Shown here: in pieces, positions 4,088-30,024 of the stretch
Layout of the letters: each line of letters starts with the position of its first letter
Numbering within the stretch: the stretch's first letter is position 1
Source: Bradymonadia bacterium
GTDB lineage: Bacteria; Myxococcota_A; Bradymonadia; UBA7976; UBA1532
Direction: 5' to 3'
DNA length: 64,000 nt
NCBI GenBank assembly: GCA_046290225.1
Contig: JBKAGE010000041.1
Location: 1-64,000 of the forward strand
Position numbers and translations under genes: made by a program
Notes under the pieces: model-generated
What the model was told of the DNA's origin: nothing
Databases searched by the model: none
Seen by the model: only the letters and a program-made list of their open reading frames with translations

Positions 4088-6835
4088 TCAGCGGGCAGGC
4101 TCGGGCTCTTCGTAGAGCGCGGTGATCTCATCGGGGCTCAGGGCGCGGTCGTAGACCCGCACGTCGTCCATGCGACCGGGGAACCCGCTGAACTCATCTG
4201 GGGTGCTGCTGCTGCACTGGCTGCCGTCAGGGAAGGCCCCTGCGTAGATGCGGCAGCCATTGTCGAGGATGGCGCCGGGCTGCGTGTCGCTGCCCACGGC
4301 GTTGCCGTTGCGGTACAGCGTCAGCTCGACATCACCACCCACCTCGCGGGCGACGCCGGCGTAGTGCACCCACTCGTCATCGCTGTGACGGCCGTTGTCG
4401 CGGGCCTCGAAGCCATCGGGGTGCAGGCCGTCGAGGCGGCCGAAGGCCACACGGTCGCTCGAGGCGAAGTAGAGGTTGAAGCCGTTGCCCTTGCCCAGAA
4501 TCCGCTCCCCGTTGCCGTTGGAGTTGGCGTGGATCCAGACCGAGAAGGTGAAGGCGTTGCCGAGATCGATGTCGGCCACCGACACCAGACCCAGCTGACC
4601 GGCGTTGTTGCCGTTGAGCAGATCACCGGCCTGCTCCCCTCGGCCGAAGCGGTCCGTGGCGAAGCCGGGGTTCTCGTAGTCACCGTCGTTGCCATTGTTG
4701 CTGGCGTCATAGATGTAGCCGTTCTCCACCGAGGCTGAGTCGAAGTCGTAGTGCAGCACCAGGCCGTCCACAGCGACGCCGGAGTGGAAGCTGATGGTGC
4801 TCGGCGCCGACTCGAGATCACCGTCCCAGGCGATGACCTCGGCGGTGAAGGTGCCCGAGCGGTCGTAGCGGTGGTTCAGGGTGGCCATGGTCTGGTCTTG
4901 CTCCAGGGCCACCATCTCCAGGGGGCTGCCATCGCCCCAGTCCACCGTGAACGACTCGACCCAGTCACCGCTCTCGGCGTTCTCGTCGGCCACCGTCACC
5001 GTCAGGTGGGTGGTGAAGCCTTCGAGCTCTACTTGCAGGTCGGTCACCTCAGGGGCCACGTTTACGATGGCTTCGGTGGGGTCCGTGCCCAGCTGGTACT
5101 CCTCATAGTCGTCCACGCCGTCGTGATCGGTGTCGGTGCGCAAGGGGTTGGGGAACACGCGGCGCTCGTCGCCGGTCTCGGCGTCGGTGATGGTCCAGCC
5201 CCAGGCCTCGAGGGCGTCGCCGGCACCGTCACCGTCGGTGTCGGCGTTCTCAGGATCAGTGCCGTAGAGGAACTCGGCCCGCTCGCCGAGGCCATCGCGA
5301 TCTGCGTCGCTGATGCGCACGAGGTGCAGAATATGGCCGGACTTGAGGGTGAGCGCGTCGAAGTCGAAGCCCTCGAGGATGGGGTTGTAGTAGTCGGTTT
5401 GGGTGTCGGCGCCGCCGTCGATAGGGTAGGTGTGGGCCACGAGCCAGTAAGCGCTCTCCTCATCGCTCATCTCGATGCCGCGCACACCCGTCACGCCCTG
5501 GAAGCTCTCCCCGGGGGTGGCCTCGGCGCCGAAACGCCATGGGCTGGTGCCGGTGGTGTAGGGCACCCGCAAGATGTCGGTGAACACCTGCTGCGCCGTC
5601 ACCCCCTGACGATCGTCGCCAAGGACCGTAGCCACACGGTAGCTCTCCTGCTTGCGGGCGTCGCCGAAGTCGATGATGACCTGGGCGGTGCGGGCGTTGA
5701 TGTTGGTGGCTTCGAGTTCGAAGGAGCGCCCGTCCTGGTCGAGCACCACGCCGGTGGCGGGGGCGACCACCATGTTCCGGGAGTCGGCGAGCACATCCTT
5801 GATGGTGGGCAGGTCGACATCGGCGGCGAAGTTCAGGGGCGCCGTGGCGTCGCCCGGCAGCACCACCGTCCGGGGGAAGATGTCGAGGCCGTCGTTGTAG
5901 AAGAGGTTGCCGATCGACCCGAGCTCGAGGGGGTTGCTGGGGTCGAGGTTGTAGGCCGAGAGGCTCAAGTCTTCGAGCATGAAGGCCAGATGACCGGTGT
6001 TGCGGACCACGACGGTGGTGACCACGGCCCCGCCGGTGATTTCGACCGACTCGCTCTGCTCCCGCTCCTCGATGCGGGCGAGGGCCTCGGAGTTCTCGCG
6101 GCTCTGGTCCTGGTTCCAGTTGGTGCTGGTCTCGTTGGTGGTCGAATGGCTGAACTCGTAGCTCAGGCTGGCGCTGGCGCTCACCCCACCGAAGAGGCCG
6201 ATCTCCACCTCGGTGCTCACCTCGACACCGGCGGTGTGGGTCATTTCGACCGAGTGGGACTGGCTGCCGCCCCAACTGCGGGTGGTGCCTTCGGTGATGC
6301 TCTGCTCGTGCTCGGTGCCTACAGTGCGGCCGGTCTGGTTCCCCTCGGAGTACACCATGTAGAACTGCGGCGTGCTCGTGAGCTCGATCTCGTACTGGGG
6401 CACGTCGGCGATGAGCGGGTTGAACTGGAAGTTGTTGTTCTCGGCGTCGAAGGCTTTTTCGACCACCTCGTTGTAGTCGTCGAAGCCGTCACCATCAGTG
6501 TCGGCCACGAAGGGGTTGGTGCCGTAGCGCTCGAGCTCTTCGACGTCGGTGAGGCCGTCTTCGTCGGTGTCGAGTGTGGGGTCGATGGGCTCCACAGCCC
6601 CACCAGCGCCACCCATGGCTTCACCACCGGCGCCGCCCATGGCTTCACCGCCGGCGCCTGCCACGGCGCCTCCGCTGCCCCCCGGATCTCCCCCTGAGCC
6701 AGCTGCACCACCAGCACCACCGATGGTGCCCCCGGTGTTGTCGGCGGGGGCGGAGGTCGTGTCGTCGCCACAGGCGCTCAGGCCCATGGTCATGGCGATG
6801 CCAGCGAGCAGGGTGCGGGAAGCCTTGGTGTTCAT
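4088..6835 (-). CDS. Lipoprotein with anthrax PA/binary toxin B-like pore-forming core, Ca-binding DxDxDG repeats, PKD and LamG domains (copy 1)
   Basis: Lipobox LSAC, Gly-rich linker, DTDGDG repeats; NPLIADVP, Ser/Thr-rich hairpin, VRNTG and INARTAQVII match PA motifs; VDWGDG (PKD); FTFSVWI…WVHYAG…MDDVRVYDRALS (LamG). Confidence 0.8.
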   Translation of the reverse strand: MNTKASRTLLAGIAMTMGLSACGDDTTSAPADNTGGTIGGAGGAAGSGGDPGGSGGAVAGAGGEAMGGAGGEAMGGAGGAVEPIDPTLDTDEDGLTDVEELERYGTNPFVADTDGDGFDDYNEVVEKAFDAENNNFQFNPLIADVPQYEIELTSTPQFYMVYSEGNQTGRTVGTEHEQSITEGTTRSWGGSQSHSVEMTHTAGVEVSTEVEIGLFGGVSASASLSYEFSHSTTNETSTNWNQDQSRENSEALARIEEREQSESVEITGGAVVTTVVVRNTGHLAFMLEDLSLSAYNLDPSNPLELGSIGNLFYNDGLDIFPRTVVLPGDATAPLNFAADVDLPTIKDVLADSRNMVVAPATGVVLDQDGRSFELEATNINARTAQVIIDFGDARKQESYRVATVLGDDRQGVTAQQVFTDILRVPYTTGTSPWRFGAEATPGESFQGVTGVRGIEMSDEESAYWLVAHTYPIDGGADTQTDYYNPILEGFDFDALTLKSGHILHLVRISDADRDGLGERAEFLYGTDPENADTDGDGAGDALEAWGWTITDAETGDERRVFPNPLRTDTDHDGVDDYEEYQLGTDPTEAIVNVAPEVTDLQVELEGFTTHLTVTVADENAESGDWVESFTVDWGDGSPLEMVALEQDQTMATLNHRYDRSGTFTAEVIAWDGDLESAPSTISFHSGVAVDGLVLHYDFDSASVENGYIYDASNNGNDGDYENPGFATDRFGRGEQAGDLLNGNNAGQLGLVSVADIDLGNAFTFSVWIHANSNGNGERILGKGNGFNLYFASSDRVAFGRLDGLHPDGFEARDNGRHSDDEWVHYAGVAREVGGDVELTLYRNGNAVGSDTQPGAILDNGCRIYAGAFPDGSQCSSSTPDEFSGFPGRMDDVRVYDRALSPDEITALYEEPEPAR

Positions 6836-6916
6836 ATATTCCTTTTTGAATGTTTTGATGCGGAGAATGCGTTTCGCCAGCGCATTTAAAGTGAGCTGGC
6901 AGACGGCCGAGCAGTT

Positions 6917-6933
6917 AGCGAAGGCCATGCCAA
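6917..6933 (-). promoter_or_regulatory. Putative sigma54 -24/-12 promoter
   Basis: Minus strand TTGGCATGGCCTTCGCT = GG-N10-GC; an equivalent site lies upstream of the paralog. Confidence 0.65.
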
Positions 6934-7054
6934 CAACGCTGGTGCATATGTGGCGTGTTTCTATGGGGTTTTGAGGGGGCGTGCGGTGAAGCGTGTCACT
7001 GACACGTGGCTGATCGATGTGCCAGTTGTGCCAGCTGTGTCACTTCAGAAAAGA

Positions 7055-8776
7055 TCAGCTCGAGGGTGATCTCGGGGGCGCGAAGTGCTCGGCGAGCATG
7101 TCTTGCAGATCTTTGAATCGCACAGGTTTAGGCAGGAATCCGTTCATGCCGGCGTCAAGGCATGCTTGATGATCTGAAGCGAGGGCCGAGGCGGTCATGG
7201 CGATGATGACAGGTTGCCGCTCGGGATCAGCGATGCGGCGGATGGCGCGACACGCCGTGAAGCCGTCCATCACCGGCATCTGGCAATCCATCAGAATCAC
7301 CGCATAGGGGTGGCGTGTATAGGCCTGCAGGGCTTCCTTGCCGTTGGTGGCGAGGTCGAAGTCATAGTGGGCCCGGCGGAGCATGGCGCTGGCCACCTTC
7401 TGGTTCACCGGGTTGTCTTCCACCAGGAGCACACGCCCCTTGGGGCCGGTCATGGGTGTCGGAGAGATCGTCGAACTCATCACCATCCGCCTGGCGCCCT
7501 TGAGCTCCGACAATGTGCGGACGAGGGCCTGGCGGCGAATGGGGCGAGAGATGATGTGGGCCTGCCGGTTGATGTGCTCAGGGGCCTGGTGTGGGGCCAG
7601 AGGCTTGATGAACGCCACCCGGCTGGACTCTTCAGCGAGCAGGCCATGCAGCTGCGCCGGTGAGAGCATGGCGAAGTCGGCCAGGGCGAGGAGCGCGGGA
7701 TCTTCGTGCAGTCGGGGCAACAGCTCCTCGGGTGCGCACAGCACGCTATGTCGACCCTGGAGTTCGAGCTGGTTGATGAGCGTGTCCTGGTCCGGCGCGT
7801 CGGGCGGCAAACACAGCAAGACACTCTGAGCACACCTCGACGGCGTCTCCCGGTACTCAAGGGTGGGGATAGGCAGCCGGGCGGCGAAGGTCGAGCCGCG
7901 ACCTGGGGTAGAGGTCACGGTGAGCTCGCCACCCATCAGCTCCACGAGATGCCGGGTGATGCTCAGCCCGAGGCCCGTGCCTCCGAAACGCCGGGTGGTC
8001 GAGGCGTCGGCCTGCACAAACGGTTCGAACAGGCGGGCGATTTGCTCTTTCGAGATGCCGATGCCCGTATCGCTCACCATCAGCACGAGATCCTCGCCTT
8101 GAGGGTGCAGCGACACCTTCACCTCACCAGAGGGGGTGAACTTGACCGCGTTATTGATGAGGTTGGCCACGATTTGCCGAAAGCGCACCAGATCGCCTTC
8201 GACGCTCTGGGGCGTCTTCGGGCTGACGTCGGTGAACAGGTTCAGGCCTTTTTTGTGGGCGTTGGTGGCGAGGCCGCCACACACTTGATCCACCGCGTCC
8301 CAAGGGTCGAAGGGGGTAGACTCCAGCAACAGCAATTCAGCCTCGATCTTCGAGAGATCGAGAATGTCGTTGAGGATGCTGAGCAATGACTCCGCAGAGG
8401 TGTGGGCGGTCTCGACGAGATCTCTCTGGTGATGGCTGAGGCTCGTCTCCAATGCCAGCTCGAGCAGGCCCAACACGCCGTTCATCGGGGTGCGGATCTC
8501 GTGGCTCATGTTCGCCAGAAATGCGCTCTTCGAAGCGTTGGCGATGTCGGCGGCGGCGACGGCATCTCTCAGCGCCTCTTCCACCCGCGCGCGCTCGCTG
8601 TTCTCGTGGGCGAGGTTCTCGTGGGCCCGCATCAAGATCAGTTGAGCGCGCTCTGCCGTCGTCTCGTAGTGCTCTGCGGTCTCCCTGAGTCGAGAGATGT
8701 CCCGTGTGAGGCGTTTGTTCTCACGACGGAGCATCTTGAGCTCTGCCTGCATCTCTATGAGATCGTCATCGGCCAT
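7055..8776 (-). CDS. Cytoplasmic hybrid histidine kinase/response regulator
   Basis: Coiled-coil N-terminus, [16 protein letters not shown]-box, [21 protein letters not shown], degenerate receiver-like segment, C-terminal receiver (LLVEDN…LMDCQMP…KP). Confidence 0.93.
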
Positions 8777-8778
8777 GT

Positions 8779-9987
8779 TTACGGCGATCCCAGGGCGAGG
8801 ACGACGCAGGTCTCGTTGTGAAACCATGGCTGGCTCGAGTGAAGGGCGGTGTGCGCCGAAGTCAGGGTGGAGACCGGCGCGATCTCACCATAGCTGTAGA
8901 ACCCCGCCGTGGTCAGCTGGCTGGCCTCAGCGGAGGCTTTGAGCGCTCGGGCCTCTTGAGAGATGCGAGAGCCCAGGATCCATTTGCGGGCAGCACACGA
9001 GATGGTGAAGAGCCCGGCAGGCGTGCCCGAGAGACCTTCGAGGGCAGAGTCGATCGCCGAGCGCGCCGCCCGGATCATGCTCTCGGTGTCTACAGAGGTG
9101 GTGCACACGTGGGTACCCTCAGGGATGGTTGCGGTACATCTGAGGCTGTTGCTTTCTATGTCGAGGCTCAGAATCGCCCTCAAATAGAAATTGTCGCTCT
9201 TGGCGTCGGGGAACACGGCGAGCGGGAACTCCACCAGAGAGTGTTGGGCCACCTCTTCGACGCTCAGGCCCACCGCCTCAGCGAAGACCTCGGCGGCGGG
9301 GCGGTGATTGAGGGTGCGGATGACGCTGCCTTCGACGTGGGTCACCTCGAGGGGTACCCCCAGCGGCACCCACCCTGAACCCACGCCGATCGAAGCGGTC
9401 AGTTCGCCTCTGAGCAGGAGCACAGGGATGGCGTCGCGGAGAGCCTTGCCATTGCAATACTGCCAGCTGTCGCTCTGTACGAACCGCTGTTTTCGCTCGC
9501 CGGTGGTGCCCCCGATGACCAGGGTGTCTGGTGTGAGGCAGCCGGAGAGCGTCTCCACAGGTACGGTGAGATCCCCGGCGTTGCCGTCAGGGGTGGTGAT
9601 GCACAGACTTGGAGGCCCGGAGAGTCCCTCGAGCGCCTGACGTACAGCAGCTTGGGTCGCAGCCTCTGGGGCATCACTCAGCGCCAGCCCATATCCCGCA
9701 GAGAACTCGATGTCGTCGCTCACGAAGAGAGTGAGCAGGATGGCGTCAGGCATGGCCTCGCCGAGGGCGTTGAAGCACCCATCGGTGCTGCCGCCGATGA
9801 TGGCTGTGTCAGGAAACTGGCCAGAGACACGCTCGATCACTCGTTGGTGGTCGTGATCTGAGGTGGTGAACAGGAGCGCAGCCGCAGGGGAGCGACCGTC
9901 GAGCGCCGACTCGGCTTGCTCGAGCAGGGCGTCGAGGGTGGGCTCAGTGTCGACCTCGTCAGCATGGAGATGAATGATGTCGAGCAT
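8779..9987 (-). CDS. FIST signal-transduction protein
   Basis: [40 protein letters not shown] and FHNET are typical FIST_N/FIST_C motifs; stop is 2 nt from the kinase start. Confidence 0.88.
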
Positions 9988-10077
9988 GGCCGCCTCAAGC
10001 TTGAAGGTGTGGCATTCAAAACGGCATCTAAATGTGTCGTTTTGAGGCACAGGGTCTATGGGGTGGGTCCCTGACCC

Positions 10078-10101: not shown

Positions 10102-10116
10102 CTCACGGCCTTCATT

Positions 10117-13100
10117 TCAAGGGGCGAGCTGGAGAGGCAGCGGGTGGGTCACGGTGCTCGAGGTGGGGGTCCACGTCGAGTTCTCCGGGTCTCGGGGTCG
10201 GTAACCCACAATGCGCTCGATGATGGGCCCGCCCTCTGCCGGCTGCGCTCTGGGGTTCACCGGGGTGAAGAGCGTGTGCCCCAAGATCTTGCGCAGGCGC
10301 AAGTCGCCGACGAACGTGCGGTTGTTGGTGATGGTGGACACCAGCTCCACCTCCACCGTGGCTTCCACTCGACCATCGCCGTTCGCGTCGGCCCCTGCGG
10401 GCACCTGGAAGGTGAGGTCGCTTTCGTTGTTGATGAAGAAGTTCACGCCAGAGCCATCCTCGAACCGCAGCCGGGCGAAGAGGTTGTCGAGGGAGGCGGT
10501 GACGTCTTCTTCGAGGGTCACCGTGCCGAACAGATCGATGCCCCAGATGGTGGCCTCGAGGGTGCCGATGCCCATGTCGAAGATCTGGCGGTTACCGATC
10601 ATGTTCGTCGGGGGGCCTCTGCGCTGGCGCATGTTGCCTGTGGGGTTCCCCGGGGCGGTGACGATGAGGGCGGGGATCCCCAGGCGCTGCATGGCCAGAT
10701 CGGCGTAGCTGTCCCACGGCACCCGCTCGTCGATGAGGACGGTGCGCCACGCGGGGCCCGTACCGCGATAGGTGCGCTTGTCGGCGCTCGCCACGCCCGT
10801 GACCGTTTCGCCGCGGTCGTAGAAGGTGCGCTCGAAGACCGGTCGCACCGAGAACGGCCCCTCGTTGCCTTCCTGGCAGAGCCCCACGCAGGAAGTGAAG
10901 CGGGCGGCGAAGTTGTTCAGTACCAGGCTGGCTCTCAGGAAATACTCCGGCAGGATCGCAGACATGACGCCACCGTCGAGCGCGGTGAAGTTGCTGCTCA
11001 CCCGGATGTTCCGGCCCGGGACGATGCGATCGGGGATGGTGATGTTGATCTCCACGGGCCAGGTCATGCCCAGGCTGCCGGAGTCGTAGTAGCCCTCGAG
11101 GCCGAAGTCCACAGAGCCCGTGGCAGAGACCGTGGCCCGGATGGGGCCGGTGTTGATGCCGAAGTCCTGGTCGCGACCGGTGATCGAGAGGCCACTGAGG
11201 GGGAACCGCAAGCGTTCTTGGGCTTGGGGTCCGGCGAGGCCCTGGTAGCGCACGAAGTAGGTGTGCCGGAACGTCGTCGTCAGCGACTCCAGGTCGCCCA
11301 CCGTCACGGTGAGATCCAGCGCCGTGGCGTTGCCTGCGGGATCAGTAGCCGTGAGCACCATGTCGATGGTGGGAGTGCGCTCGAAGTCCAGCGCCTCGCC
11401 GTTGATCAGTCGCACAGTGCCGTCTTCGAGCAGTTCGAACTGACCCGAAGGGTCGCTCAGGGTGAGCGTGGGGGTCAGACCTTCGGGGTCTGTCGCCACG
11501 TAGCGATGCAGCACCCGCCCCTGCTCCACGGCTTCTTGCACCGTGAAGGCCGTGGGCGTGCCCATGGGGAAGAACGGCGGCTCGTCGACGTTGCTCACCC
11601 GCACCGTGAGCGTGCGCTCGGTGGCGATGTTGTCGTTGTTGGTGATGATCGCCCGCACATCGAAGATCGGGTTCTGCTCGAAGTTGGGCGATCCCCCGGG
11701 GGCGACGCGCACCACGCCGTTGCCGTCGACGGTGAGGGTGTTGGAGGCGTCGATCAGCTGGTAGCTGGCGATGCCGGCGATGTCAGAGGCCTGCAGATCG
11801 CCCACTGGATCGCTCTCGAGCAAGGTGAGGCCCTGGGTCTCGATGGTGGGGGCGAGCAGCACGTTGGCGTCGCCGCGGACCATCAGCTTCACCGGGCCGT
11901 CGTCGAAGCGACGCCAGACCAGGCCGTCCACCGTGGTGAGGGGGCCCACGACCCAGCCGGAGCCGCTGGCGACGACGGTGTCTTCAGCGTTGCCGGTGAC
12001 CCACAGAGTGCGGGCACCGCCGGTGTTGCGCATGATGCGTGGGGCGTCCACGACCAGGCGATCTGCACCGGCGGCGGTGAGGTCGATGCGCTCGATGTTG
12101 CGCACCCTGCCGTTGAGCTGGGTGAGATCGAGGGCGATCCCGCCGGCGCTGCGCAAGGTGTCGAGGCCGGGGCCGCCGTCGACACGGCGGAAGGCGGTGT
12201 CGCTGATGATGATGGTGTCTTCACCGCGGCCGCCGTTGATGGCGTCGTCGCCGCCCTGGCCATCGATGGTGTCGTCGCCTCCCTGGCCGACGATCACATC
12301 GGCGCCGGCGGTGCCCGTGAGGGTCTCTGCAGAGGCGCTCCCGCGTACGGTGACGTCGCCGCGATCGTCGCGACCGAAGTAGACCATGACCGCGCCGCCC
12401 TCGGCTCGGGCGGGGGCGCCGACCACGATGTCGGCGAGGCCGTCGCCGTTGACGTCGCCCACGTCGACCGAATGGCCGAAGCGGCTCGCAGACCAGGGGC
12501 CGTCGAGGGTGAAGCCCTCACCGGCGTTGACGAGATCGTTCCACAAGGGGGTGGGGGCGTCGGGGCGGCCGTAGACCACGATGACCTGACCCTGGCTGTT
12601 GTTCCACTCGGGGTGACCCACCACGATGTCGTCGTAGCCGTCGCCGTTGATGTCGCCCATGGCCCCCTGGAACGTCCGCGGCCCTGGGATCGCGTCGATG
12701 GCGAAGCCCCCGTTGCCCGCCACCAGCTGGTTGATGCTGGGCAGGGCGCGATCTGCGCGGCCGAAGAGGCCCACCAGCTCGGTTTGGCCGTTGGGCCGCA
12801 GGGTGGAGTAGATCAGATCGTCGAGGCCGTCGCCGTTGAAGTCGCCTCCACTCGCCGCCATGTTCCGCGCCTGTGAGCGACCCTCCGCGAGCTGGTTCAC
12901 CGCGGTGTACGACGGGATGAAGTTGGCGCCGAAGGGCACGCTGGTCTCCCGGCCGTCGGTGAGATCGATGCGGCGGGTGCTCTCACGGCCCCAGATGACG
13001 TAGCTGGTGGTCGAAGGCCAGTACGAGGTGGGGTTGAGCCACAAATCGCCCAGACCGTCGCCGTCGAGATCGCCCCCGTCGCCGAAGTACTGCCCCCACT

Positions 13101-18385: not shown

Positions 18386-18542
18386 CGAGGTTCCCTCTGG
18401 CGTTCGACGCCGTACGTCCGCCCGAAGCTGCTCGGGCAGCTTGTGGGACACCGCTCGGCTCGGCGGTGGCAAACGTCACATCATTTTTTCTGTGCAGAAG
18501 TGGGAATGCCCCGTTTTGGGCCGGCTGTCGAGGTTGGCATCG

Positions 18543-19101
18543 AGCTCTCTGTGTCTGGGCGATGAGGTAGGCTGTGGCTGGGCCTTTGTAGGCAGTCGTC
18601 GCTGCGCTCCGCCTGCGTAGGCAGCTCTGTCGGCCGGCCTTCGGCCCGCCTTGGAGCTGCGTACACGTCGGTACACTCGCTGGCGCGAGCAGGCCTCCGG
18701 GTAGGCAGGGTCGCTCAGGGCTTCGCCCTGTTTGCTCGCTCCCCTGCGTAAAAAGTCAGTTCTGGTGTGACTTTGAGGGCACCCCCAATACTGTTGGGGC
18801 TTTCGCCGAGCCTTGGGACACAGGAGCTTACAGGTTCGCGGTAGGTCGAATCCCGGGGGGGTTCAGCAACAAGAAACAGAAGAAGCTCTTTACGCAGGGG
18901 AGCGAGCAAACAGGGCGAAGCCCTGAGCGACCCTGCCTACCCGGAGGCCTGCTCGCGCCAGCGAGTACGTCGACGTGTACGCGCCAGACGAGGCGCATCG
19001 AAGATGTGCCGAAGGCCCGGCGCCTACGCAGGCAGAGCGAAGCGATGACTGCCTACAAAGGCCCAGCCACAGCCTACCTCATCGCCCAGACACAGAGAGC
19101 T
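18543..19101. repeat. ~560-bp palindromic element (~210-bp imperfect inverted arms, ~135-bp spacer)
   Basis: AGCTCTCTGTGTCTGGGCGATGAGGTAGGCTGTGGCTGGGCCTTTGTAGGCAGTC at 18543 is mirrored ending at 19101; inner arms 18661-18752 and 18889-18980 are also near-perfect. Confidence 0.85.
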
Positions 19102-19106
19102 GAGTG

Positions 19107-21824
19107 TCAGCGGAAGCTGTCAGGCTCGAGGTAGAGGGCAGAGATCTCTTCAGGGCTCAGAGCGCGGTTGTAGACCCGCACGTCGTCCATCAGCCCCGGG
19201 AAGCCGCTGAACTCGTCCGCCCTGGAGTCGTTGCACTGGTCACCGTCAGGGAAGGCCCCAGCGTAGATGCGGCAGCCATTGTCCACGATGAGGCCCGGCA
19301 TGTTCGCCGAGGCCACGCTCTCGCCGTTGCGGTAGAGGGTCAGCTGGGTCGAGCCGTCCATGGGCAGGGCTACGCCCACATAGTGCGTCCACTCGTTGTC
19401 GGCGTGGGTGCCCATGTCCCGAGCTTCAGCACCATCAGGCTGGAGCCCATCGAGGCGACCGAAGGCCACCTTGTTGCTCGTGGCGAAGTAGAGGTTGAAG
19501 CCGTTGCCCTTGCCCAGAATCCGCTCTCCGTTGCCTCGGGAGTCAGCGGAGATCCAGACCGAGAAGGTAAAGGCGTTGCCCAGGTTCACGTTGCGCACCG
19601 ACACCAGGCCCAGGTTGTCTGCTTCGTTGTTGTTGAGCAGATCGCCAGCGCGCTCGCCGCGGCCGAAGCGGTCAGTGCCGAAGGCCGGGTTGTCGTACTC
19701 CCCGTCGTTGTTGGCGTTGCTGGCGTCTTCCATGGTTTGGCCGTTCACGCTCTGCCGATCGAAGGTGTAGTGCAGCAGCAGATCTTGAGTCGGCACCTGT
19801 GGCTCGAACGTGCGGATCGTCGGCTCCGAGGCGAGGGCGCCGTCCCAGGCCATGACCTCGATGGAGAACGTCTCAGAGCGGTTGTAGACGTGCTCCACGG
19901 TGACCTGGTTCATGCCCTCCTCGAGGAGCACCACCTCGTCTCTGCCATCACCCCAGTTGATGCGGACCTCTTCCACGCGGTCACCAATGTTGGCGTTGGG
20001 ATCGTCCACAGTCACCGTCAGGATCGCCGCCACCCCGCGGCTGTCGATGCGCAGGTCGGTGATCTCCGGGGCCAGGTTGAGCGCGCCGTCGGTGGGATCA
20101 GTGCCCGCCTCGAACTCGTCGCAGTCGCTGACGGTGTCGCCGTCGGTGTCGATCGCCAGGGGGCTGGGGAACACGCGGCGCTCTTCGCCGGTCTCTTCGT
20201 CGGTGATGATCCAGCCACCGGCCTCCAGTGAGTCGGAGCAGCCATCACCGTCGGTGTCGGGGTTCTCGGGATCAGTGCCATAGAGGAATTCGGCGCGGTC
20301 GCCGAGGCCATCGCGATCCATGTCCTCGATGTAGACGAGGTGCAGGATGTGGCCCGACTTGAGCACCAGGCCGTCGAAGTCGAAGTCCTCGACGATGGGG
20401 TTGTAGTAGTCGGTCTCGGTGCCAGCGCCCGCTTCGGTGGGGTAGGTGTGGGCCACGATCCAGTATGCGCTGCCAGGATCGTTCATCTCGACCCCGCGCA
20501 CTGCGGTGACGCCGGTGAAGCTGTCGGTGGGGGCATCGTTGGTGTCAAAGCGCCATGGACTGGTGCCGGTGGTGTAGGGCACCCGCAAGATGTCGGTGAG
20601 CACCTGCTGCGCCGTCACCCCCTGGCGATCGTCACCGAGGGCCGTGGCCACGCGGTAGCTCTCCTGGGCTCGGTTCTGACCGAAATCGAGGATGACCTGA
20701 GCGGTGCGGGCGTTGATGTTGGTGGCTTCGAGCTCGAAAGAGCGCCCATCCTGGTCGAGCACCACGCCCGTGGCCGGGGCCACCACCACGTTGCGAGAGT
20801 CAGCGAGCACATCTTTGATGGTGGGCAGGTCGACCTCGGCGGCAAAGTTCAAAGGCGCCGTGGTGTCACCGGGCAGCACCACCGTCCGGGGGAAGAGATC
20901 AGCGCCGCTGTAGAAGAGGTTGCCGATCGACCCGAGTTCGAGGGGGTTGCTGGGGTCGAGGTTGAAGGCCGAGAGGGTCAGATCTTCGAGCAGGAAGGCG
21001 ATGTGACCCGTGTTCTCCACCACGACGGTGGTGGCCACGGCCCCGCCGGTGATCTCCACCGACTCGCTCTCTTCGGTCTGCTCGATTCGGGCCAGCGCGT
21101 TGGTGTTCTCGCGGCTCTGATCCTGGTTCCAGTTGGTGCTGGTCTCATTGGTGGTCGAATGACTGAACTCGTAGCTCAGGCTCGCGCTGGCGGTGGTGCC
21201 ACCGGTGAGCCCGAACTCGTGCTCCACGCTGATTTCGACGCCGGTGGTGTGGGTCATTTCGACCGAGTGGGACTGGCTGCCGCCCCAGCTGCGGGTGGTG
21301 CCCTGGGTGATGCTCTGCTCGTGCTCGGTGCCTACAGTACGACCCGTCTGATTGCCCTCGGAGTACACCATGTAGAACTGCGGCGTGCTCGTGAGCCGAA
21401 TCTCGTACTGGGGCACGTCGGCGATGCGCGGGTTGAACTGGAAGTTGTTGTTCTCGGGATCGAAGGCTTTTTCGACCACCTCGTTGAAGTCATCAAAACC
21501 GTCGCCATCAGTGTCGGCTACGAGAGGGTTGGTGCCGTGCTGGTTGATCTCGTCTACGTCGGTGAGGCCATCACCATCGGTGTCGAGATCAGGGTCGATC
21601 ATGCCCCCGGCACCACCTTCACCAGCACCACCGGCCTCGCCGCCCGCGCCACCCATCATCTCACCACCAGCGCCACCGCCGGCGCCCCCGGCCATGCCGC
21701 CTGCGCCACCGGCCATGCCGCCGGTGTTGCCGCCCGGGTCGGAAGAGCTGTCGTCTCCACAGGCGCTCAGGCCCATGGTCATTGCGATGCCGGCGAGAAG
21801 AGTGTGGGTGGTCCTGGTATGCAT
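19107..21824 (-). CDS. Lipoprotein with anthrax PA/binary toxin B-like core, PKD and LamG domains (copy 2)
   Basis: Close full-length paralog of 4088-6835 with the same motifs. Confidence 0.8.
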   Translation of the reverse strand: MHTRTTHTLLAGIAMTMGLSACGDDSSSDPGGNTGGMAGGAGGMAGGAGGGAGGEMMGGAGGEAGGAGEGGAGGMIDPDLDTDGDGLTDVDEINQHGTNPLVADTDGDGFDDFNEVVEKAFDPENNNFQFNPRIADVPQYEIRLTSTPQFYMVYSEGNQTGRTVGTEHEQSITQGTTRSWGGSQSHSVEMTHTTGVEISVEHEFGLTGGTTASASLSYEFSHSTTNETSTNWNQDQSRENTNALARIEQTEESESVEITGGAVATTVVVENTGHIAFLLEDLTLSAFNLDPSNPLELGSIGNLFYSGADLFPRTVVLPGDTTAPLNFAAEVDLPTIKDVLADSRNVVVAPATGVVLDQDGRSFELEATNINARTAQVILDFGQNRAQESYRVATALGDDRQGVTAQQVLTDILRVPYTTGTSPWRFDTNDAPTDSFTGVTAVRGVEMNDPGSAYWIVAHTYPTEAGAGTETDYYNPIVEDFDFDGLVLKSGHILHLVYIEDMDRDGLGDRAEFLYGTDPENPDTDGDGCSDSLEAGGWIITDEETGEERRVFPSPLAIDTDGDTVSDCDEFEAGTDPTDGALNLAPEITDLRIDSRGVAAILTVTVDDPNANIGDRVEEVRINWGDGRDEVVLLEEGMNQVTVEHVYNRSETFSIEVMAWDGALASEPTIRTFEPQVPTQDLLLHYTFDRQSVNGQTMEDASNANNDGEYDNPAFGTDRFGRGERAGDLLNNNEADNLGLVSVRNVNLGNAFTFSVWISADSRGNGERILGKGNGFNLYFATSNKVAFGRLDGLQPDGAEARDMGTHADNEWTHYVGVALPMDGSTQLTLYRNGESVASANMPGLIVDNGCRIYAGAFPDGDQCNDSRADEFSGFPGLMDDVRVYNRALSPEEISALYLEPDSFR

Positions 21825-21915: not shown

Positions 21916-21932
21916 GGCGAAAGTCATGCCAA
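21916..21932 (-). promoter_or_regulatory. Putative sigma54 -24/-12 promoter
   Basis: Minus strand TTGGCATGACTTTCGCC = GG-N10-GC. Confidence 0.65.
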
Positions 21933-22047
21933 TTGTCGCAGAATTTCTCGGGTCAGTGTTTTCGGTGGGTTATGGCGCTGTTCAAGGTGTGGGTCGATGG
22001 CACAGAGCCTGAGAAAGTGCCAGATGTGCCGATGTGTGTGACACCTC

Positions 22048-22680
22048 TCAGAGGTTGAACGCCCACCCCAGTGAGACGTTGGCGAAGACGCCGAAGTCCT
22101 TCGCCTCGTGCACCTCTCCGGTGTCGAAGGTGTGCTTGTCGTCGTCGAGGCTGGACCAGATGTTGGGCCAGTAACGCAGATAAATGTTCGTGTGCAGGCC
22201 GTCCCAGATGAAATAGCGCCACGCCAGCACGGGGCCGATGCTCACGGTGGTGTACGACAGCGACTCTCCGCCCGGGTGGTCGATCTCGAAGCGGTGTCCC
22301 TTGAACTCTGCGCCGAGATACAGCTCGTCCAGCAGCACATAGCCTATACCAGCCCCTGTGCTCCACGGGGTGAACACCTCGAGGTTCTGACGCTCCTCTT
22401 CTTCGGTGAGCGCCACCCCGCCGGCGGCGTTGAAGTCGAGGTTCATGCCGTGGGAGTACTCGAACACCCATCGCTTGTAGCGACCCTCCACCGCAACGTT
22501 GAAGCCGTTGATCAACAGCTGGCTCAGGCCGAAGTTCACGCCCAGCTGCCCCGAGTCCGCGCTTCGAGCTTCGAGCTGAAACTCGTGACCAGGGAAGCCC
22601 TCACTGCCAGGGCCGTGGGATTGGGCGGCAACGGGGTAGAAGAGAAGCAGGCAAAACGGGATCAACAGATGGTGTCGCAT
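22048..22680 (-). CDS. Exported protein, probable small outer-membrane beta-barrel
   Basis: Signal peptide, alternating amphipathic strands, C-terminal VSLGWAFNL. Confidence 0.6.
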   Translation of the reverse strand: MRHHLLIPFCLLLFYPVAAQSHGPGSEGFPGHEFQLEARSADSGQLGVNFGLSQLLINGFNVAVEGRYKRWVFEYSHGMNLDFNAAGGVALTEEEERQNLEVFTPWSTGAGIGYVLLDELYLGAEFKGHRFEIDHPGGESLSYTTVSIGPVLAWRYFIWDGLHTNIYLRYWPNIWSSLDDDKHTFDTGEVHEAKDFGVFANVSLGWAFNL

Positions 22681-22766: not shown

Positions 22767-23765
22767 CTATCTGGCCACCTCGCCGGTGCGGGCGAAGACA
22801 CCAGGGGCGACGCCGAACCATCGACGAAATGCCCGAGTGAAGGCGCTGGCGTCCGAATAGCCGAGCTGCCACGCCACCTCGGCCACCGTGGCGCGGCCAC
22901 CCTTCAGTTGAGCCTGTGCTTCGTGTTGTCGCACCCGGTCGAGCACCTCGGAGTAGCGGGTGTTGGTGGCCTGAAGTCGTCGACGGAGGGTCCTCGGGCT
23001 CACTCCCATGTCCCGGGCCATCTCTTCCAATGTGGGGGTGCCCGACGGCAGCCGGCTCAGCAACAAGCGCTCGACCTGACCGATGATGGCGTGCTCGACG
23101 ATGGGCATGCGGGCTTCGAGCTGCGCTTCGAACCAGGCCGCCATGGCCGGGTTGGCCATCTTCGGGGCCTGAGACATGCACGTGTCGGAGAAGCTGAAGC
23201 CGTCGGACTCGGCGCTGAAGCGTGGCTGCAGGCCGAAGAATTCGGTGTGGGCCTCGATGTTGGGCGGCGCTCGGTGGCGAAAGCGCACATCTGAGAGCTC
23301 GACAATGCCCATAAGCGCGCGCAGGACCTGCACCCACTCGGCGATCACCCCCTCGTTGGCCGCTCGATAGCCCAGGGCGGGCGGGCCGGTGCGGTGCCAC
23401 TCCATGTGCACCTGGCCGTCCGCGAGACTGTAGGTCCAGTGAGACGAGGGGCAGTGCAGCGTTTGATAGCGAATGCCTCGGCGTAGGGCTTCGGCGCCAT
23501 CTGGCGCGGTCATCACCGCGAAACCCACCACGGAGTAGTCTTCCGGAGAGAGCTTCGAGGCGAGGCGCACGGGCCAGCCGGGATCATCGAGGCGGCGGAT
23601 GATGTCGCCGTAGACCGCATAGAACACGTCGAGGTTCACCGGGTGGAGGGGGTCTTCAACACCCTCCAAGCCCAATTGCACGCGATAGGGCTGGCCGTCG
23701 AGCCCCTCCGCCTCGGCCAGGCGGATGGTGTTCCAGGCGATCTGAGCAACGATGGTGCGTACCAT
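22767..23765 (-). CDS. AraC-family transcriptional regulator (OruR/arabinose-binding-2 type N-domain)
   Basis: LEEMARDMGVSPRTLRRRL…VAEVAWQLGYSDASAFTRAFRRWFGVAP. Confidence 0.92.
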   Translation of the reverse strand: MVRTIVAQIAWNTIRLAEAEGLDGQPYRVQLGLEGVEDPLHPVNLDVFYAVYGDIIRRLDDPGWPVRLASKLSPEDYSVVGFAVMTAPDGAEALRRGIRYQTLHCPSSHWTYSLADGQVHMEWHRTGPPALGYRAANEGVIAEWVQVLRALMGIVELSDVRFRHRAPPNIEAHTEFFGLQPRFSAESDGFSFSDTCMSQAPKMANPAMAAWFEAQLEARMPIVEHAIIGQVERLLLSRLPSGTPTLEEMARDMGVSPRTLRRRLQATNTRYSEVLDRVRQHEAQAQLKGGRATVAEVAWQLGYSDASAFTRAFRRWFGVAPGVFARTGEVAR

Positions 23766-23820: not shown

Positions 23821-26800
23821 TCAGGGTTCCTCGGGGGGCGGCGGGGGGGTCAACTGCAGGGGCAGCTCGAACGAGCGCCCCGGCGCCGTGGGGGTCCAGG
23901 CCGCGGGCATGGGCTCGGTCACGGGGTTGCGCACCACCGTGTCGAAGAATGGGCCGGCCTCACGGGTCGGGAAGGCGGGGTTGCTGGGCTGGAAGATCAC
24001 ATGGCCGGCGAGCCAGCGCAGGCCCATCTCGATGTCGAGGTGGCGGTTGTTCACGGCGCTGGCCCGCATGTCCACGCTGATGGAGGCCTGCACCCGGCCA
24101 TCTCCGTTCACGTCGGCCCCAGCGGGGATCTGCACGTTGGCCGGCGTGCCGACATCGAAGGTCACCATTGAGCCGTCTTCGAGGGTCATGGTGGCCTCGA
24201 CGCCGTCGAAGGTCATGGTGATGTCTTCGTCGAGGTGGATGAAGCCGAAGACGTTCATGCCGTAGATGGTGGCCGTGAGCGTACCTCCGCCGATGTCGAT
24301 GATCTGTCGGTTGCCGACGAGCCCAGCCCCCGGCAGCGTCCGCCGACCGCCGGTGTCCGGCGGTGCGGGCAACAGGAGTAGACCCCCAGGGACCCCGGTT
24401 TGTTGGAGGATGTAGTTGATGTAGTCGTCCCAGGGGATCTCCTCACGCACGATGCGGGTGCGCCAGGCCTCCCCCGTGCCTCGGAGCGTGCGGCGATCTG
24501 CGCTCACCGTGCCCTCCACGATCTCGGGGAAGTCGGTGAAGATCCGCTCGAAGAGAGGCTGTTGGGTGAAGGGGCCGATGGCGAGCTCCTGGCAGCCGCC
24601 GACGCAGGCCCGCATGCGGACGGCGAAGTTGTTCATGAGGGCCCGCACCGTCACCGAGTAGTTCGGTAGACCTGCCCGCAGCCGTGCACCCTCAAGCATG
24701 GTGAAGCTGCTGGTGATGGCCACGTTCTGCCCCGGCACGATGCGGTCGGGGATCGTGATGCTCACTTCGACCGGCCACTCTGCGGCCATGCGCCCGGTGT
24801 CGTAGTAGCCTTCGAGGCCCAGGGCGAGCTGCCCGGTGCGGAGCACATCCACGTTCACAGGGCCCACGGGTCCGGTGAGGAGGCTCCGCTCCCCGTCGAT
24901 CTGAATCCCCGAGAGGGGGATGGGCGCCCGCTGGGTTTCACCGCCCACGAGGCTCTGGTTCGCGATCACATAGGTGTGCCGGAACCGCGTCGTGAGGGAC
25001 TCAAGGTTGGTGACGGTCACCCTGATGTTCACCTCGTTGGCGTTCCCCGAGGGGTCTGTCGCCGTCAGCACGAGATCGATGGTGGGGGTGCGCTCGAAGT
25101 CGATGGCTTCGGCGGTGGCCACCTGCAGCGTGCCGTCGGCGAGCAGCTCGAAGGCCCCCGTAGGATCAGTCAGCTCGAGAGTGGGGCTCAAACCTTCAGG
25201 ATCAGTGGCTACGTAGCGGTGCAGTACTCTGCCGTGCTCCACGGCCTCTTGCACCTCGAAGGCCGTCGGTGTGCCTGGGGCGAAGACCGGGGCCTCGTCG
25301 ACATTGCTCACCCGCACTGTGATGGCGCGGCGAGTGGCGACGCCGTCGTCGTCGGTGATGACGGCTACCACGTCGAAGGTCGGGTTCTGCTCGAAGTTGG
25401 GATCACCGCCAGGGGCCACCCGCACCACGCCGTTCGCGTCCACCGTGAGGGTGCCCGAGGCGTCTTCCAGGGCGTATGCTGCGATGGCGCCGTCGTCGGT
25501 GGCGCGCAGATCACCCACGGCGTCGCCGGGCAGGGCAGTCTCGAGCAGCGTCAGGCCCGTCGTGAAGACGCTCGGGGCGAGCAGCACTTGAGGCTCACCC
25601 TGGACCATCAGCCGCACCGGACCATCATCGAAACGTCGCCAGGTTTGTCCCTCGAGCACCATCTCACTCCCCGTCACCCAGCCCGAGCCGCTGGCGACCA
25701 CTGTGTCCTCGGCGCTGCCGGTGACCCACAGAGTGCGGGCGCCGCCGGTGTTGCGCATGATGCGCGGGGCGTCCACCACCAGGCGATCTGCACCGGCGGC
25801 GGTGAGATCGACGCGCTCGATGTTGCGCACCTTGCCGTTGAGCGCGGTGAGGTCGACCACCAGGCCCCCAGCGGTCCTCAGAGTGTCGGTCCCGGGGCCA
25901 CCGTCGATGCGGCGGAAGGCGGTGTCGCTGATGACGATGGTGTCGTTGCCGCGGCCGCCGTTGACGGCGTCGTCGCCACCACCGCCGTTGATGGTGTCGT
26001 TGCCGCCCTGGGCGACGATGACGTCGGCAGCGCCAGTGCCCGCAAGGGTCTCGTCGTTGTCATTGCCCCGCAGCGTGATGACGCCACGATCATCGCGACC
26101 AAAGTAGACCATGACCGCACCACCCTCGGCCCGAGTGGGGGCGCCGACGAGGATGTCGGCGAGGCCGTCGCCGTTGACGTCGCCCACATCGACGGAGTGA
26201 CCGAAGCGGCTTGAAGGCCAGGGCCCGTCGAGGGTGAAGCCCTCACCGGCGTTGACGAGGTCGTTCCAGAGCGGAGTAGGGGCGTCGGGGCGCCCGTAGA
26301 CTACGATGACCTGACCCTGGCTGTTGTTCCACTCGGGGTGGCCCACCACGATGTCGTCATAGCCGTCGCCGTTAAGGTCGCCCATGGCACCCTGGAACGT
26401 CCGCGGCCCTGGGATCGCGTCGATGGCGAAGCCCCCGTTGCCCGCCAGCAGCTGGTTGATGTTGGGCACGACACGATCAGCGCGGCCGTAGACGCCCACC
26501 AGCTCAGTCTGGCCGTTGGGCCGCAGGGTGGAGAAGATCAAATCGTCGAGGCCGTCGCCGTTGAAGTCGCCTCCGCTCGCCGCAGTGTTCCGGGCCTGTG
26601 AGCGGCCCTCGACCACCTGGTTCACCACAGTGAACGAGGGCGTGAAGTTGCCAAAGAGCAGGCTGGTCTGCGTGCCATCCGTGATGTCGATGCGGCGGGT
26701 GGTTTCGCGGCCCCAGACCACGTACGAGGTGATGGAGGGCCAGTACGAGGTGGGGTTGAGCCACAGATCACCCAGGCCGTCGCCGTCGAGATCGCCGGCG

Positions 26801-29800
26801 CTGCCGAAGTACTGCCCCCACTCGGAGGTGAAGCCGTCAAAGCGGGGCGTGGGCAGGGTGAAGTCGATGACGCGGCCCTGCTGCAGCGAGGCTACGTCGG
26901 AGATGTCCACCTGGCCGATGTTGGTGCCCCCGGGCAGGATGTACATGTTCCCAATCTTGTTGGCACCCTGCGTCGGGGCGCTGGCGACGAGATCGTCGTA
27001 GCCGTCGCCGTTGAAGTCCTGTACCAGCACCATCCGCGTGCCCAGCGTGTCGCCGCCGTCGGGGACCGTGCGGCCGGTGCCGCCGATGAGGGTGTCCACA
27101 CCGCCCAGGCCCTGCAGCCCGCTCGCCGAGGCTCCGGAGATCATGTAGGCGCGGCCGGCGATGGGATCACCAGCGGCGCTCAGGGCTGCGGGGGCGCCCA
27201 CGGCAAAGTCGGGCACCGCGTCGTCGTCGAAGAACCGTGCCCCTCGGGTCACCGAGTAGCCGAAGACGTCGCCGAAGGGTTGGGTGTCGAGACTACCAAC
27301 GCTGAGGGACGTGAGCACGTTGCCGTACCGGGCCACCGCGCGGCCGCCAGACTCACCGTTGAGCGTGAACAGCGCCACGCCGCCTCTGGGTTGCTGGTCT
27401 GCAGTGTCTCGTTTGCCAGCGATCGCATAGACCTGGCCCGCCTCGTTGGCCTCTGGCGTCGGCGCGGCGTTCGGCGCGCCGACGAGCATGTCGTTGAGGC
27501 TGTCGCCGTCGAGGTCAGCAGAGACCGACACCTGCGCACCAAAGGCGTCACCGGCGGTGCCGCTCAGGATGTCGTACGTCCCACGGTTGACCACCGAGGG
27601 CCGGGTGGTGGTGAAGGATCCCAGGCGACCGCCGGGGCTCAGCGCCGCGGCGCGACACTCAACGAGATCGCCGTCGGCGAGGTTGTCGGTGACATAGGTA
27701 GAACCCGACTGTGCTTCGTCGAGAACGTCGTTGACGTACCATTCGTACACGATCTCGCTGGGATCGCCGCAGTTCGTGCTCAGTGGGGTGGCGGTGCAGC
27801 GGATCACCTCGCCGATGACGGGCTGGGCGGGGCCGGTGGTGTAGTCGGTGACGGTGGCCACGCCAGCGAGCACGGTGAGGGTCGGCGTGCTGAGCTCCCA
27901 GGTGGCGCCGGGGGGACCGACGGTGGCGGTGCAGGTGAGGGTGTCCCCGATGTCGAGGTTGTCGAGGGTGTCGGGGTTGCCGTTGACGGGCTGGCCGTTC
28001 AGGGTCCAGCGGTACGACACGGGGAGCGGGTTGGCGGGATCGATGATGTCGAGGCCCGCAGCGGCGCAGGTGAAGGGGTCGCAGAAGGTACCCTGAGGTG
28101 AGGTGATGCTGGCAGTGACGCCCACCACGACATATCGAGCAGCGCCGAGCGATTCGACAAAGCCGCCGTCGGGGTTCTCTACGTAGATGTCGATGAGGCC
28201 CACCCCCGCAGCGCTCGCAGGGGGCGTCACGGTGAGCATGCCCTCGTCCACGCGGTCCACGGCCACCTCGGTGTCGTTGAGCCACACACGCACCTCAGGC
28301 TGGAAGTTCGACCCCGTCAGCGTGATGTCCACGTCGCCGATGTGAGAGACCTCCAAGGGCGCCACGGTGTCGAGTACCGGAGGCTCTACGAAGCACACCC
28401 CGCCACGGCAATTGAGACGCGCGCAGTCTTCATGGCCCACGCACACCTGATTGCCCAGGCAGCCCGGACAATCACCGCCACAATCCACGTCCGTCTCGGT
28501 GCCGTTGCGCACGCCATCGTCACAGGCCGGCGCCGCACAAGCGTCACCGGCGCACACCCCGCTCTCACAGAGACTGGGCTCGGCGCAGGGTGTACCTGTG
28601 GGGCACAGCGGGCAGGGCCCGCCACAGTCCAGGGCGAGCTCGCCTCCGTTCTGCACGCCGTCGTCGCAGGCGGGCACCGCACAGGCCCCCCCTGTGCACA
28701 CGCCGCTCGCGCAGCTGTCCGGGCCAGCGCAAGGGGTGCCCGCGAGGCACAGCGGGCAGGGGCCGCCACAGTCTACGGCGGCCTCGGCGCCGTTGCGCAC
28801 GGTGTCGTCGCAGGTGGGCGCCGCGCAGGCCCCCTCGGCGCACACGCCAGAAGCGCAGTCACCCGGCTGAGCGCAGCTCAGGCCATCGGCGCAGGTGGGG
28901 CAGGGGCCGCCACAGTCCACGTCGGTCTCGATGCCGTTGCGTACGCCGTCGTCACATGCGGGCGCTGCGCAGTTGCCCTGAGCGCACACGCCGCTCTGAC
29001 AGTCATTTGGCTGGACACACAGGGCGCCATCGGCGCAGGCGGGGCAGGAGCCACCACAATCAACATCGATCTCGTCGCCGTTGCGCACGGTGTCGTCACA
29101 GGTGGGCGCCGCGCAGGCGCCGTCGGGGCAGACCCCCGAGGTGCAATCGCTGTCTGCGATGCATGCGTCACCATCAGCGCAGGGGTCACAGGCGGGGCCG
29201 CCGCAGTCGGTGTCGAGCTCGTCGCCGTTGCGCACGGCATCGTCACAAGCAGGGGTTGCGCAGACACCATCGGGGCATACCCCCGAGGTACAATCACCAT
29301 CCTCTACGCACGCCCCACCATCGGCGCAGGGGCCACAGGTGGGGCCACCACAGTCGGTGTCGGTCTCATCGCCGTTACGCACGGTGTCGTCACAGGCGGG
29401 GGTGGCGCACACGTCATCAGTGCAGATCTGACTCTGGCAATCGCTGGGTTGAGCGCATCCCTGGTCTGCCAGACAGGGCCCGCAGATGGGGCCACCGCAG
29501 TCGACGTCCGTCTCTTCCCCGTTTTGCACCGTGTCCATGCAGGTGGGCGGAGTGCAGAAGCCGTCGACGCAGGGGATGCCGTCGCAGTCTTCAGGGGCGA
29601 GGCACTGACCGCCGGGTCCGCAGGGCGCGCATTCGGGGCCGCCGCAATCGATGTCGGTCTCATCGCCGTTCTGCATGCCGTCATCGCAGGTGGGCTCTGG
29701 GGGCATCGCATCAGGTACGACGGCATCCGGCACCATGACATCCGGCACCATGACATCCGGCACCATGACATCTGGCATCATGGCATCAGAGAGCGTCGCA

Positions 29801-30024
29801 TCTGGCTCGGGTGGCATTGCGTCGGGATCAGGTGCCAGGGCGTCAGGCTCACCGATCTGTGCGTCGGGATCACCGAGGGCTGAATCTGGCTCAAAAGGCT
29901 CCATGTCGAGCTCTGGTGTGGCGTCGACCACGACCATTGCGTCGGCTGGTGGATTACCTCCATCATTTCCGCCATCGTCACAGGCCCACAAGAGCAGGCA
30001 GAGGACAGGCCACAGTCGTTTCAT
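23821..30024 (-). CDS. Giant adhesin-like lipoprotein, copy B (PDA/PDV linker, 9 Cys-rich repeats, IPT/Ig, FG-GAP, RTX, cadherin, C-terminal domain)
   Basis: Lipobox LWAC; [17 protein letters not shown] repeats; GDxNGDGxDDxx[39 protein letters not shown] cadherin motifs. Confidence 0.88.

Follow-up and report, generated by a model that had tools for sequence, protein, structure and literature searches.

The question raised by this locus is whether its large surface proteins and its smaller pore-like proteins act together on a target cell, or whether the pore-like proteins belong to a family of their own. The locus lies in a 64,000-nucleotide stretch of DNA from a Bradymonadia bacterium (GenBank assembly GCA_046290225.1, contig JBKAGE010000041.1, positions 1 to 64,000 of the forward strand), the whole of which is referred to below as the window. 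It encodes two lipoproteins with a core like that of the PA-type pore proteins, PA1 and PA2, and two giant proteins, G1 and G2, forming two G/PA pairs. The PA-like lipoprotein family is a real finding, a variant of the known PA-type family. The G/PA pair is a local duplication and not a conserved system, the adhesin-like proteins apparently being local neighbours.

The PA-like core

The two PA-like genes, with the parts of PA1 on which the assignment rests, are as follows.

19107..21824, minus strand: PA1 lipoprotein, 905 amino acids (aa); lipobox Cys22, Gly-rich linker, PA63-like core, second Ca-binding repeat, PKD-like part, LamG domain
20325..21596, minus strand: PA63-like core of PA1, aa 77-500, domains 1', 2 and 3, placed by structure and profile alignment
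21159..21245, minus strand: predicted membrane-insertion beta-hairpin of PA1, aa 194-222, placed by its alternation pattern in a low-confidence region of the monomer model
19110..19796, minus strand: LamG/ConA-like domain of PA1 (PF13385 E 2e-22, Z about 21), the candidate glycan- or receptor-binding part
4088..6835, minus strand: PA2, paralog of PA1, 915 aa; core 84%, PKD part 47% and LamG 69% identical to PA1

PA1 and PA2 are the only PA-like genes of the 8.58-Mb genome. PA1 was modelled with AlphaFold on a 76-sequence alignment (mean predicted local distance difference test score, pLDDT, 85); confidence was low only near residues 170-223 and over the signal and the linker. A Foldseek search with this model placed Vpb4Da2 at the top (E 6e-15), followed by CDTb, PA, Vip1 and Ib, all at E<=2e-9. 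In VIA-align, against 48,161 chains, residues 78-515 were superposed on the iota Ib prepore (Z 15.1, root-mean-square deviation (rmsd) 4.3, 321 residues aligned) and residues 79-532 on PA63 175-702 (Z 14.3, rmsd 4.4, 315 residues aligned). The first VIA-align list for PA1 was filled by the LamG domain; every core-covering row among the top 50 belongs to the PA/Ib family. A profile of the core only, built from 78 sequences, is colinear with Vip1 (E 2e-5) and PA63 (E 0.0035) from domain 1' through domain 3. The agreement of Foldseek, VIA-align and the colinear profile makes the fold assignment firm: on these models, PA1 and PA2 are placed in a divergent, widespread branch of the Bacterial_Exotoxin_B (PA/Ib/CDTb/Vpb) fold. 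The call of a PA-like protein in the preliminary description of the locus was thus borne out, its core modelling as PA63 domains 1'-2-3 (Z 14-15). Identity of the PA1 model to PA-family chains is 9-17%. A predicted Ca-binding repeat in domain 1' carries an invariant Asp-rich motif (TSP3_bac in 71/78 cores), and a second one follows domain 3. A prediction of a two-copy core complex scored 0.01, which counts neither way.

With residues 100-560 of PA1 as the query, 8000 candidates were scored and 120 homologs listed; the PA-like homologs number at least 405. The best 80 of 117 confirmed GTDB stretches were kept as 78 loci. Their hosts include Myxococcota, Gamma- and Zetaproteobacteria, Planctomycetota, Nitrospiria, Verrucomicrobiia, Spirochaetota, Fibrobacter, Holophaga and Chloroflexota, phyla that are mostly diderm. 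The closest named homologs are from Polyangiaceae, Myxococcales and Persicimonas. Six named homologs were looked up, and are labelled either as hypothetical or by an accessory domain. A literature search, which did not cover subscription papers or supplements, found no description of lipid-anchored PA-type proteins or of the G/PA pair; the word ‘pore’ occurs 0 times in the available parts of PMC7460792 and PMC12428579.

In PA1 and PA2 a lipoprotein signal and a Gly-rich linker stand where a pro-domain would be. The core begins at residue 77-79 of PA1, aligned to PA 174-175, which we take to be about where cleaved PA63 begins. The linkers of PA1 and PA2 contain no Lys or Arg, and so no basic site, and the PA14 family is absent from the Pfam labels of the 120 listed homologs. 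The putative lipobox Cys22 is nearly invariant in the homolog alignment. A strict lipobox pattern, our own and not a trained predictor, is matched by 81/116 full-core homologs, and several of the other 35 show a lipobox by eye. Among the 81, the core starts within 75 residues in 48 and within 20 in 22; the others insert Ig-like or repeat stalks ahead of the core.

The C-terminal end is variable. Labels among the 120 listed homologs include LamG, PKD, RCC1, FG-GAP and one cytolysin domain 4, and four homologs of 503-516 aa consist of the core without a binding domain. The ratio of nonsynonymous to synonymous divergence is about 0.56 in the binding end, compared with 0.25 in the core. One homolog (P0051) is a fusion of the PA-like core with PASTA and with a C-terminal domain of the thiol-activated cytolysin type (PF17440).

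The stem is long and Ser/Thr-rich, and is the best-conserved part between PA1 and PA2 (87%). From the invariant Pro132 to the invariant Asn271 it spans 139 residues (109-169 across the family), compared with 98 in Vip1, which suggests a longer barrel. The hairpin of aa 194-222 takes the position of the PA insertion loop in the core profile alignment. Its hydrophobic fraction is 0.73 on one face and 0.06 on the other, and the amphipathic alternation is kept in 71/75 homologs; these counts and those for the lumen are based on the 75 sequences that cover the segment, 3/78 having been dropped for gaps. The lumen face, read from sequence parity only, is acidic, with four Glu in both PA1 and PA2 and a net negative charge in 60/75 homologs; the median net charge of the stem is -9. 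The phi-clamp Asp-Phe motif was found in only 4/78 sequences in the matching segment, leaving 74/78 without it, and the clamp loop appears shortened or deleted. As the HMMER register at the clamp region differs between PA and Vip1, the deletion of the loop is deduced from strand matching; the motif is missing whichever of the registers is taken.

The Bacterial_Exotoxin_B family is described, in the available part of PMC13462110, as composed of a pro-domain, pore domains and binding domains. PA1 and PA2 resemble PA63, Ib, CDTb, C2-II and Vpb1 (Vip1) in the order and fold of domains 1'-2-3, the Ca-binding repeat, the insertion hairpin and the predicted C-terminal binding domain. They share a negatively charged lumen with the binary AB translocases. 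They differ from the named toxins in that a predicted lipoprotein anchor replaces the cleaved pro-domain, in the lack of a clamp motif and in the longer stem. The branch also has its extra Ca-binding repeat after domain 3, no adjacent A subunit, and mostly diderm hosts. A further comparison is with the Vpb4 subclass of single-component pores (Vpb4Da2, Vpb4Aa2), the top Foldseek match, for which the same part of PMC13462110 reports no Phe clamp, no enzyme partner and a neutral, charge-paired lumen. PA1 and PA2 likewise lack the clamp and the enzyme partner. However, Vpb4 is secreted and its 20-kDa pro-domain is cut off, whereas PA1 and PA2 are predicted to be lipidated, without a pro-domain and with an acidic lumen. 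An analogy is offered by the Bacteroidota CDC-like (CDCL) and BSAP antibacterial pore toxins, in which a fold of Gram-positive, anti-eukaryote toxins is reused by Gram-negatives against bacteria (available part of PMC11169675 for CDCL). The CDCL proteins have a MACPF/CDC fold, consist of two components, are activated by a protease of the target and are accompanied by an immunity lipoprotein; nothing of this kind was found for PA1 and PA2.

Proposed action

We put the probability at roughly 0.55, a little better than even, that the PA-like protein is a stand-alone, surface-tethered beta-pore former which perforates a touching cell. Perforation from the surface or from vesicles had earlier been proposed for adhesin and pore together; it is retained as the best reading of the PA-like protein alone, and not as an adhesin-pore system. 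The lipidated protein would be held on the producer's surface or on its vesicles, and the LamG domain would bind a glycan or receptor of the touching cell. The subunits would oligomerise without proteolysis and the stem would refold into a beta-barrel. In PA-type pores, domain 1' is the top of the cap and the barrel leaves from the opposite face. With the anchor on domain 1', the barrel would therefore be inserted in trans, into the membrane of the neighbour and not of the producer; the linkers of at most 20 residues seem unable to span the way back to the producer's own membrane. As there is neither a phi-clamp nor an adjacent A subunit, the target cell would most likely be damaged by leakage. 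Pore formation, surface exposure and the target are what we infer here from the features of the protein.

The culture supernatant of Bradymonabacteria was without antibacterial activity and vesicle-like structures were seen, according to the available part of PMC7460792. These observations fit a tethered agent, but do not point to the PA-like gene.

Several points weigh against this reading. Many hosts are non-predators (Fibrobacter, Treponema, Thiotrichaceae). Single-sequence searches of PDB, Pfam and NCBIfam gave no PA link for PA1 or PA2, only LamG and Ca-binding repeats, and among the 78 cores the Pfam family Binary_toxB touched 7, Binary_toxB_2 and _3 none. The lipobox count depends on the pattern described above. 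The acidic lumen is translocase-like, unlike that of Vpb4, and so counts against a simple Vpb4-like mode of action. The lack of a conserved immunity gene leaves self-protection unexplained. Finally, a 14-bp motif described below may reflect local co-regulation of the G and PA genes.

A fuller picture would be a PA63-type pore of diderms from many phyla, pre-activated and lipid-tethered, which assembles without leaving the producer's surface or its vesicles and pushes a long beta-barrel into the touching cell. It would be a contact weapon encoded by a single gene, with a binding part that can be exchanged, and would here be co-regulated with giant adhesins whose terminal domain has no matching fold and which would hold the target. 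This is tentative and less likely than not.

Giant neighbours and other readings

The remaining genes and repeats between and around the PA-like genes are listed below.

23821..30024, minus strand: G1, a giant lipoprotein of 2067 aa made up of signal, Pro/Asp linker, Cys-rich repeats, TIG, FG-GAP, RTX, cadherin-like part and 387-aa tip
23824..24984, minus strand: G1 tip domain, 387 aa; long beta-hairpins inserted on an Ig-like base; identity to the G2 tip 44%
22767..23765, minus strand: AraC-family regulator (PF12625 E 9e-31, PF12833 E 4e-21)
22048..22680, minus strand: small putative outer-membrane beta-barrel protein, 210 aa; a weak assignment (PF13505 E 0.0038, under the curated cut-off)
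18543..19101, no strand: nested palindrome, 560 bp, between PA1 and G2; a dispersed repeat like a miniature inverted-repeat transposable element
10117..18385, minus strand: G2, the broken paralog of G1, with its lesions in the first 370 nt; 2632 aa in the open frame 18015-10117
10120..11271, minus strand: G2 tip domain, counterpart of the G1 tip
8779..10050, minus strand: FIST-domain sensor protein (PF08495, PF10442)
7055..8827, minus strand: hybrid histidine kinase (PF00512, PF02518, PF00072)

The minus-strand order G1-AraC-beta-barrel-PA1-G2-FIST-hybrid kinase-PA2 and its coordinates stand as in the preliminary description, except that 18385-10117 is not a single open frame. Both of its G/PA pairs are real as well, but they amount to a single duplication and not to two independent observations. 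Protein identity is 72% between PA1 and PA2 and 63% between G1 and G2, with 75-78% at the DNA level. Synonymous divergence between the pairs is 0.40 in the PA core and 0.37 in the FG-GAP part. These similar values fit a single, old local duplication of the G-to-PA block, in which one adhesin gene and one pore gene were neighbours.

A lipoprotein-type signal, as read from the sequence, begins G1 and G2 as it does PA1 and PA2, although in G2 a stop precedes the lipobox Cys. Domain searches place Cys-rich repeats, TIG, FG-GAP repeats, RTX repeats and a cadherin-like part in the giant proteins; the DCGG repeat core is present in 9 copies in G1 and 23 in the open part of G2. They resemble integrin-alpha-like surface proteins in their FG-GAP, RTX, cadherin-like and TIG domains, and differ from them in their own lipoprotein anchor, the Cys-rich repeat stalk and a 387-aa tip without a clear fold match. 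On their domain content, the giant proteins are plausible Ca-dependent adhesins, a family separate from the PA-like proteins. The complete architecture was found in few relatives. A third, distant giant-like lipoprotein of 2159 aa lies on contig C63 (6987-13466 of locus L124); where G1 and G2 have Cys repeats it has Ca-binding ones, and a histidine kinase gene adjoins it.

The tip is the most divergent part between G1 and G2, at 44% identity compared with 82% in the FG-GAP part. Its model is confident (pLDDT 88.9), with the long hairpins on an Ig-like base. No Foldseek match was found at E<=0.001, and the best structure-search match (Z 6.7) covers the Ig-like part only, with no family above that. 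The tip has 50 relatives at E<=0.001; none of 56 pattern matches in a metagenome scan is a relative, and the ESM Atlas held no usable match to the tip domain or the PA-like core. The tip was also considered as a second pore former; MACPF rows appeared only at E>0.009 with Foldseek TM-scores up to 0.16, and this was rejected as long-strand noise.

A dedicated partnership, in which the giant adhesin would hold the target and the PA-like pore would perforate it, is unlikely. In its favour are the occurrence of the pair twice with similar synonymous divergence, and FG-GAP repeats fused to the PA-like core in 10/120 listed homologs. Other surface-protein genes flank the PA-like gene at 4/130 neighbour positions (L057, L076, L032, L065). 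Upstream motifs also favour it. The claim that short upstream blocks are conserved within each gene type was upheld. A 14-bp motif is common to G1, G2 and PA1, and each PA gene has a sigma-54-like site:

30084..30097, minus strand: 14-bp motif upstream of G1, common to G2 and PA1
22036..22049, minus strand: 14-bp motif upstream of PA1
18443..18456, minus strand: 14-bp motif upstream of G2
21917..21931, minus strand: sigma-54-like -24/-12 site upstream of PA1, by pattern match
6918..6932, minus strand: sigma-54-like -24/-12 site upstream of PA2, by pattern match

The 14-bp motif has 8 sites genome-wide at <=1 mismatch, 3 of them upstream of G1, G2 and PA1, and a degenerate copy lies in register upstream of PA2. 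As the pattern was chosen from these very sites, it is a hint of local co-regulation only. The putative sigma-54-like sites, 82-92 nt before the PA1 and PA2 starts, are 2/27 in the genome. They are not a general feature: upstream of homologs such a site was found in 0/72 regions, at a control rate of 0.4% (open reading frame-based, with rough starts).

Against the partnership stands the lack of linkage. No giant-gene ortholog lies near the PA-like gene in any of the 78 GTDB loci (0/78; probed with the Cys repeats, middle part, RTX-cadherin part and tip domain), of which 53 have at least 5 kb available upstream and 42 on both sides; FG-GAP repeats alone occur near it in 2/78. A giant gene was likewise found at 0/6 PA-like loci of about 30 kb from 5 related genomes, a set that may share records with the 78, and a PA-like neighbour at 0/7 giant-gene loci. 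Among 113 genomes of the class, counted on full-core rows only with 16 candidates scored per genome (a Ca-repeat tally of 109/113 was not used), 9 were positive for the full PA-like core and 8 for the tip domain, the two occurring together only in the genome of the window. For the 112 others the overlap observed is 0, against 0.5 expected by chance and 7-8 if the two were coupled; with so low a chance value, zero overlap fits independence. Several of these genomes are not complete, and some contigs break off close to the genes. The PA-like gene was not found in 6/7 of the other tip-positive genomes in one search, and in 5/7, including the seventh, in another. Weak partial RTX or cadherin matches occur elsewhere in the genome in 2/5 PA-positive genomes. 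One genome (G013) encodes two full giant orthologs and lacks a PA-like gene; another (G035, C7:55000-63600; L011-L012) has three tandem PA-like lipoprotein genes with nothing between them and no giant gene. Moreover, the PA-like protein carries its own binding domain, and G2 is broken. The conserved adhesin-plus-pore system put forward in the preliminary description is thus not supported.

No conserved partner, enzyme or immunity gene emerged from clustering of 841 neighbouring frames or from the Pfam labels of 130 immediate neighbours. Only a NarL/LuxR response regulator recurs, its gene immediately preceding that of the PA-like protein in 13/66 loci, mostly of related Gammaproteobacteria (L024, L031, L035, L037, L044, L045, L047, L050, L058, L061, L063, L067, L075). 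In Fibrobacter loci (L079:9227-9649, L082, L086, L089, L093) the PA-like gene is preceded, at a distance of 10-11 bp, by a conserved gene for a secreted-type protein of 140 aa, with a 640-aa gene often following. These genes are without a Pfam label and include a candidate partner or immunity gene.

A translocase, with a wide-clamp channel like BECb that delivers cargo encoded elsewhere into the touched cell, is likewise improbable. The acidic lumen and stem and the retained Ca-binding sites of domain 1' are what such a channel might have, and BECb translocates despite a serine clamp, with a charged lumen (available part of PMC13462110). However, the clamp motif is missing from nearly all homologs, the loop appears shortened, and the lipid anchor would leave from the face of cargo docking. 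No ADP-ribosyltransferase or similar enzyme was found among the 130 immediate neighbours or in the window, unlinked or unlabelled cargo being possible.

It is quite doubtful that the protein is no weapon but a channel in the producer's own envelope, either in the outer membrane or as a conduit spanning the periplasm. CsgG and Wza are examples of outer-membrane channels. The lipoprotein signal, the absence of an immunity gene, the non-predatory hosts and the long stem would all agree with such a role. Yet an outward orientation is indicated by the Ig-like stalks, the Ca-binding repeats and the variable domains of lectin-like and propeller type, presence is patchy (9/113 genomes), and no transport or secretion genes are conserved nearby. 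A non-pore scaffold, in which the fold is kept as a Ca-stabilised support of a surface lectin or adhesin, would suit the low identity to PA-family chains, but is very improbable given the kept hairpin alternation, the conserved stem and the four homologs without a binding domain.

As assembled, the second adhesin copy has a disrupted 5' end, as judged from its reading frames. G2 carries three lesions: codon 13 is a stop (18349-18347, ahead of the lipobox Cys), the frame changes near 18185, and another stop follows at 18054-18052, which leaves the open frame without a signal peptide. The remaining 7.9 kb is open and has diverged under purifying selection, which argues for recent damage or a local assembly error. 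The clustering of all three lesions within the first 370 nt is unlikely under uniform decay (p about 9e-5), so a local assembly error near the palindrome is possible; 49 coding-like frames of at least 2000 aa in the assembly weaken a general assembly-error account.

The palindrome, overlooked in the earlier description, belongs to a family present at 52 places in the genome. The element is about 500 bp; its inverted arms measure 200 bp and its core, which is conserved and asymmetric, 143 nt, the core being enlarged in two copies (491 nt on C77 and 317 nt on C34). A different inverted repeat, with arms of 51 nt and a spacing of 143 nt, is found at 81-325. PA2 is followed on its own strand, after 49 bp, by a gene for a membrane Ser/Thr kinase (2453-4039). 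Two genes away from G1, positions 31295-36076 hold a gene for a 1593-aa lipoprotein-like protein with Big_5, Cys-rich MopE-type and RCC1 repeats, making the region rich in large surface proteins. A 780-aa frame with thrombospondin type 3 repeats is present at 57632-59974.

Meaning for the PA-type family

The PA-type pore family has been described from Gram-positives, as secreted, protease-activated toxins that act on animals. A large lipid-anchored branch without a pro-domain in mostly diderm bacteria would widen the range of the family, to which the local pairing with a giant adhesin adds little. The branch would also bear on the question, posed in the available part of PMC13462110, of whether the ancestor was a stand-alone pore or a translocase. 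For the Myxococcota, the PA-like protein is a candidate for contact-dependent killing by predatory members, one of which, the cultured predator Persicimonas caeni, carries a homolog (P0019).

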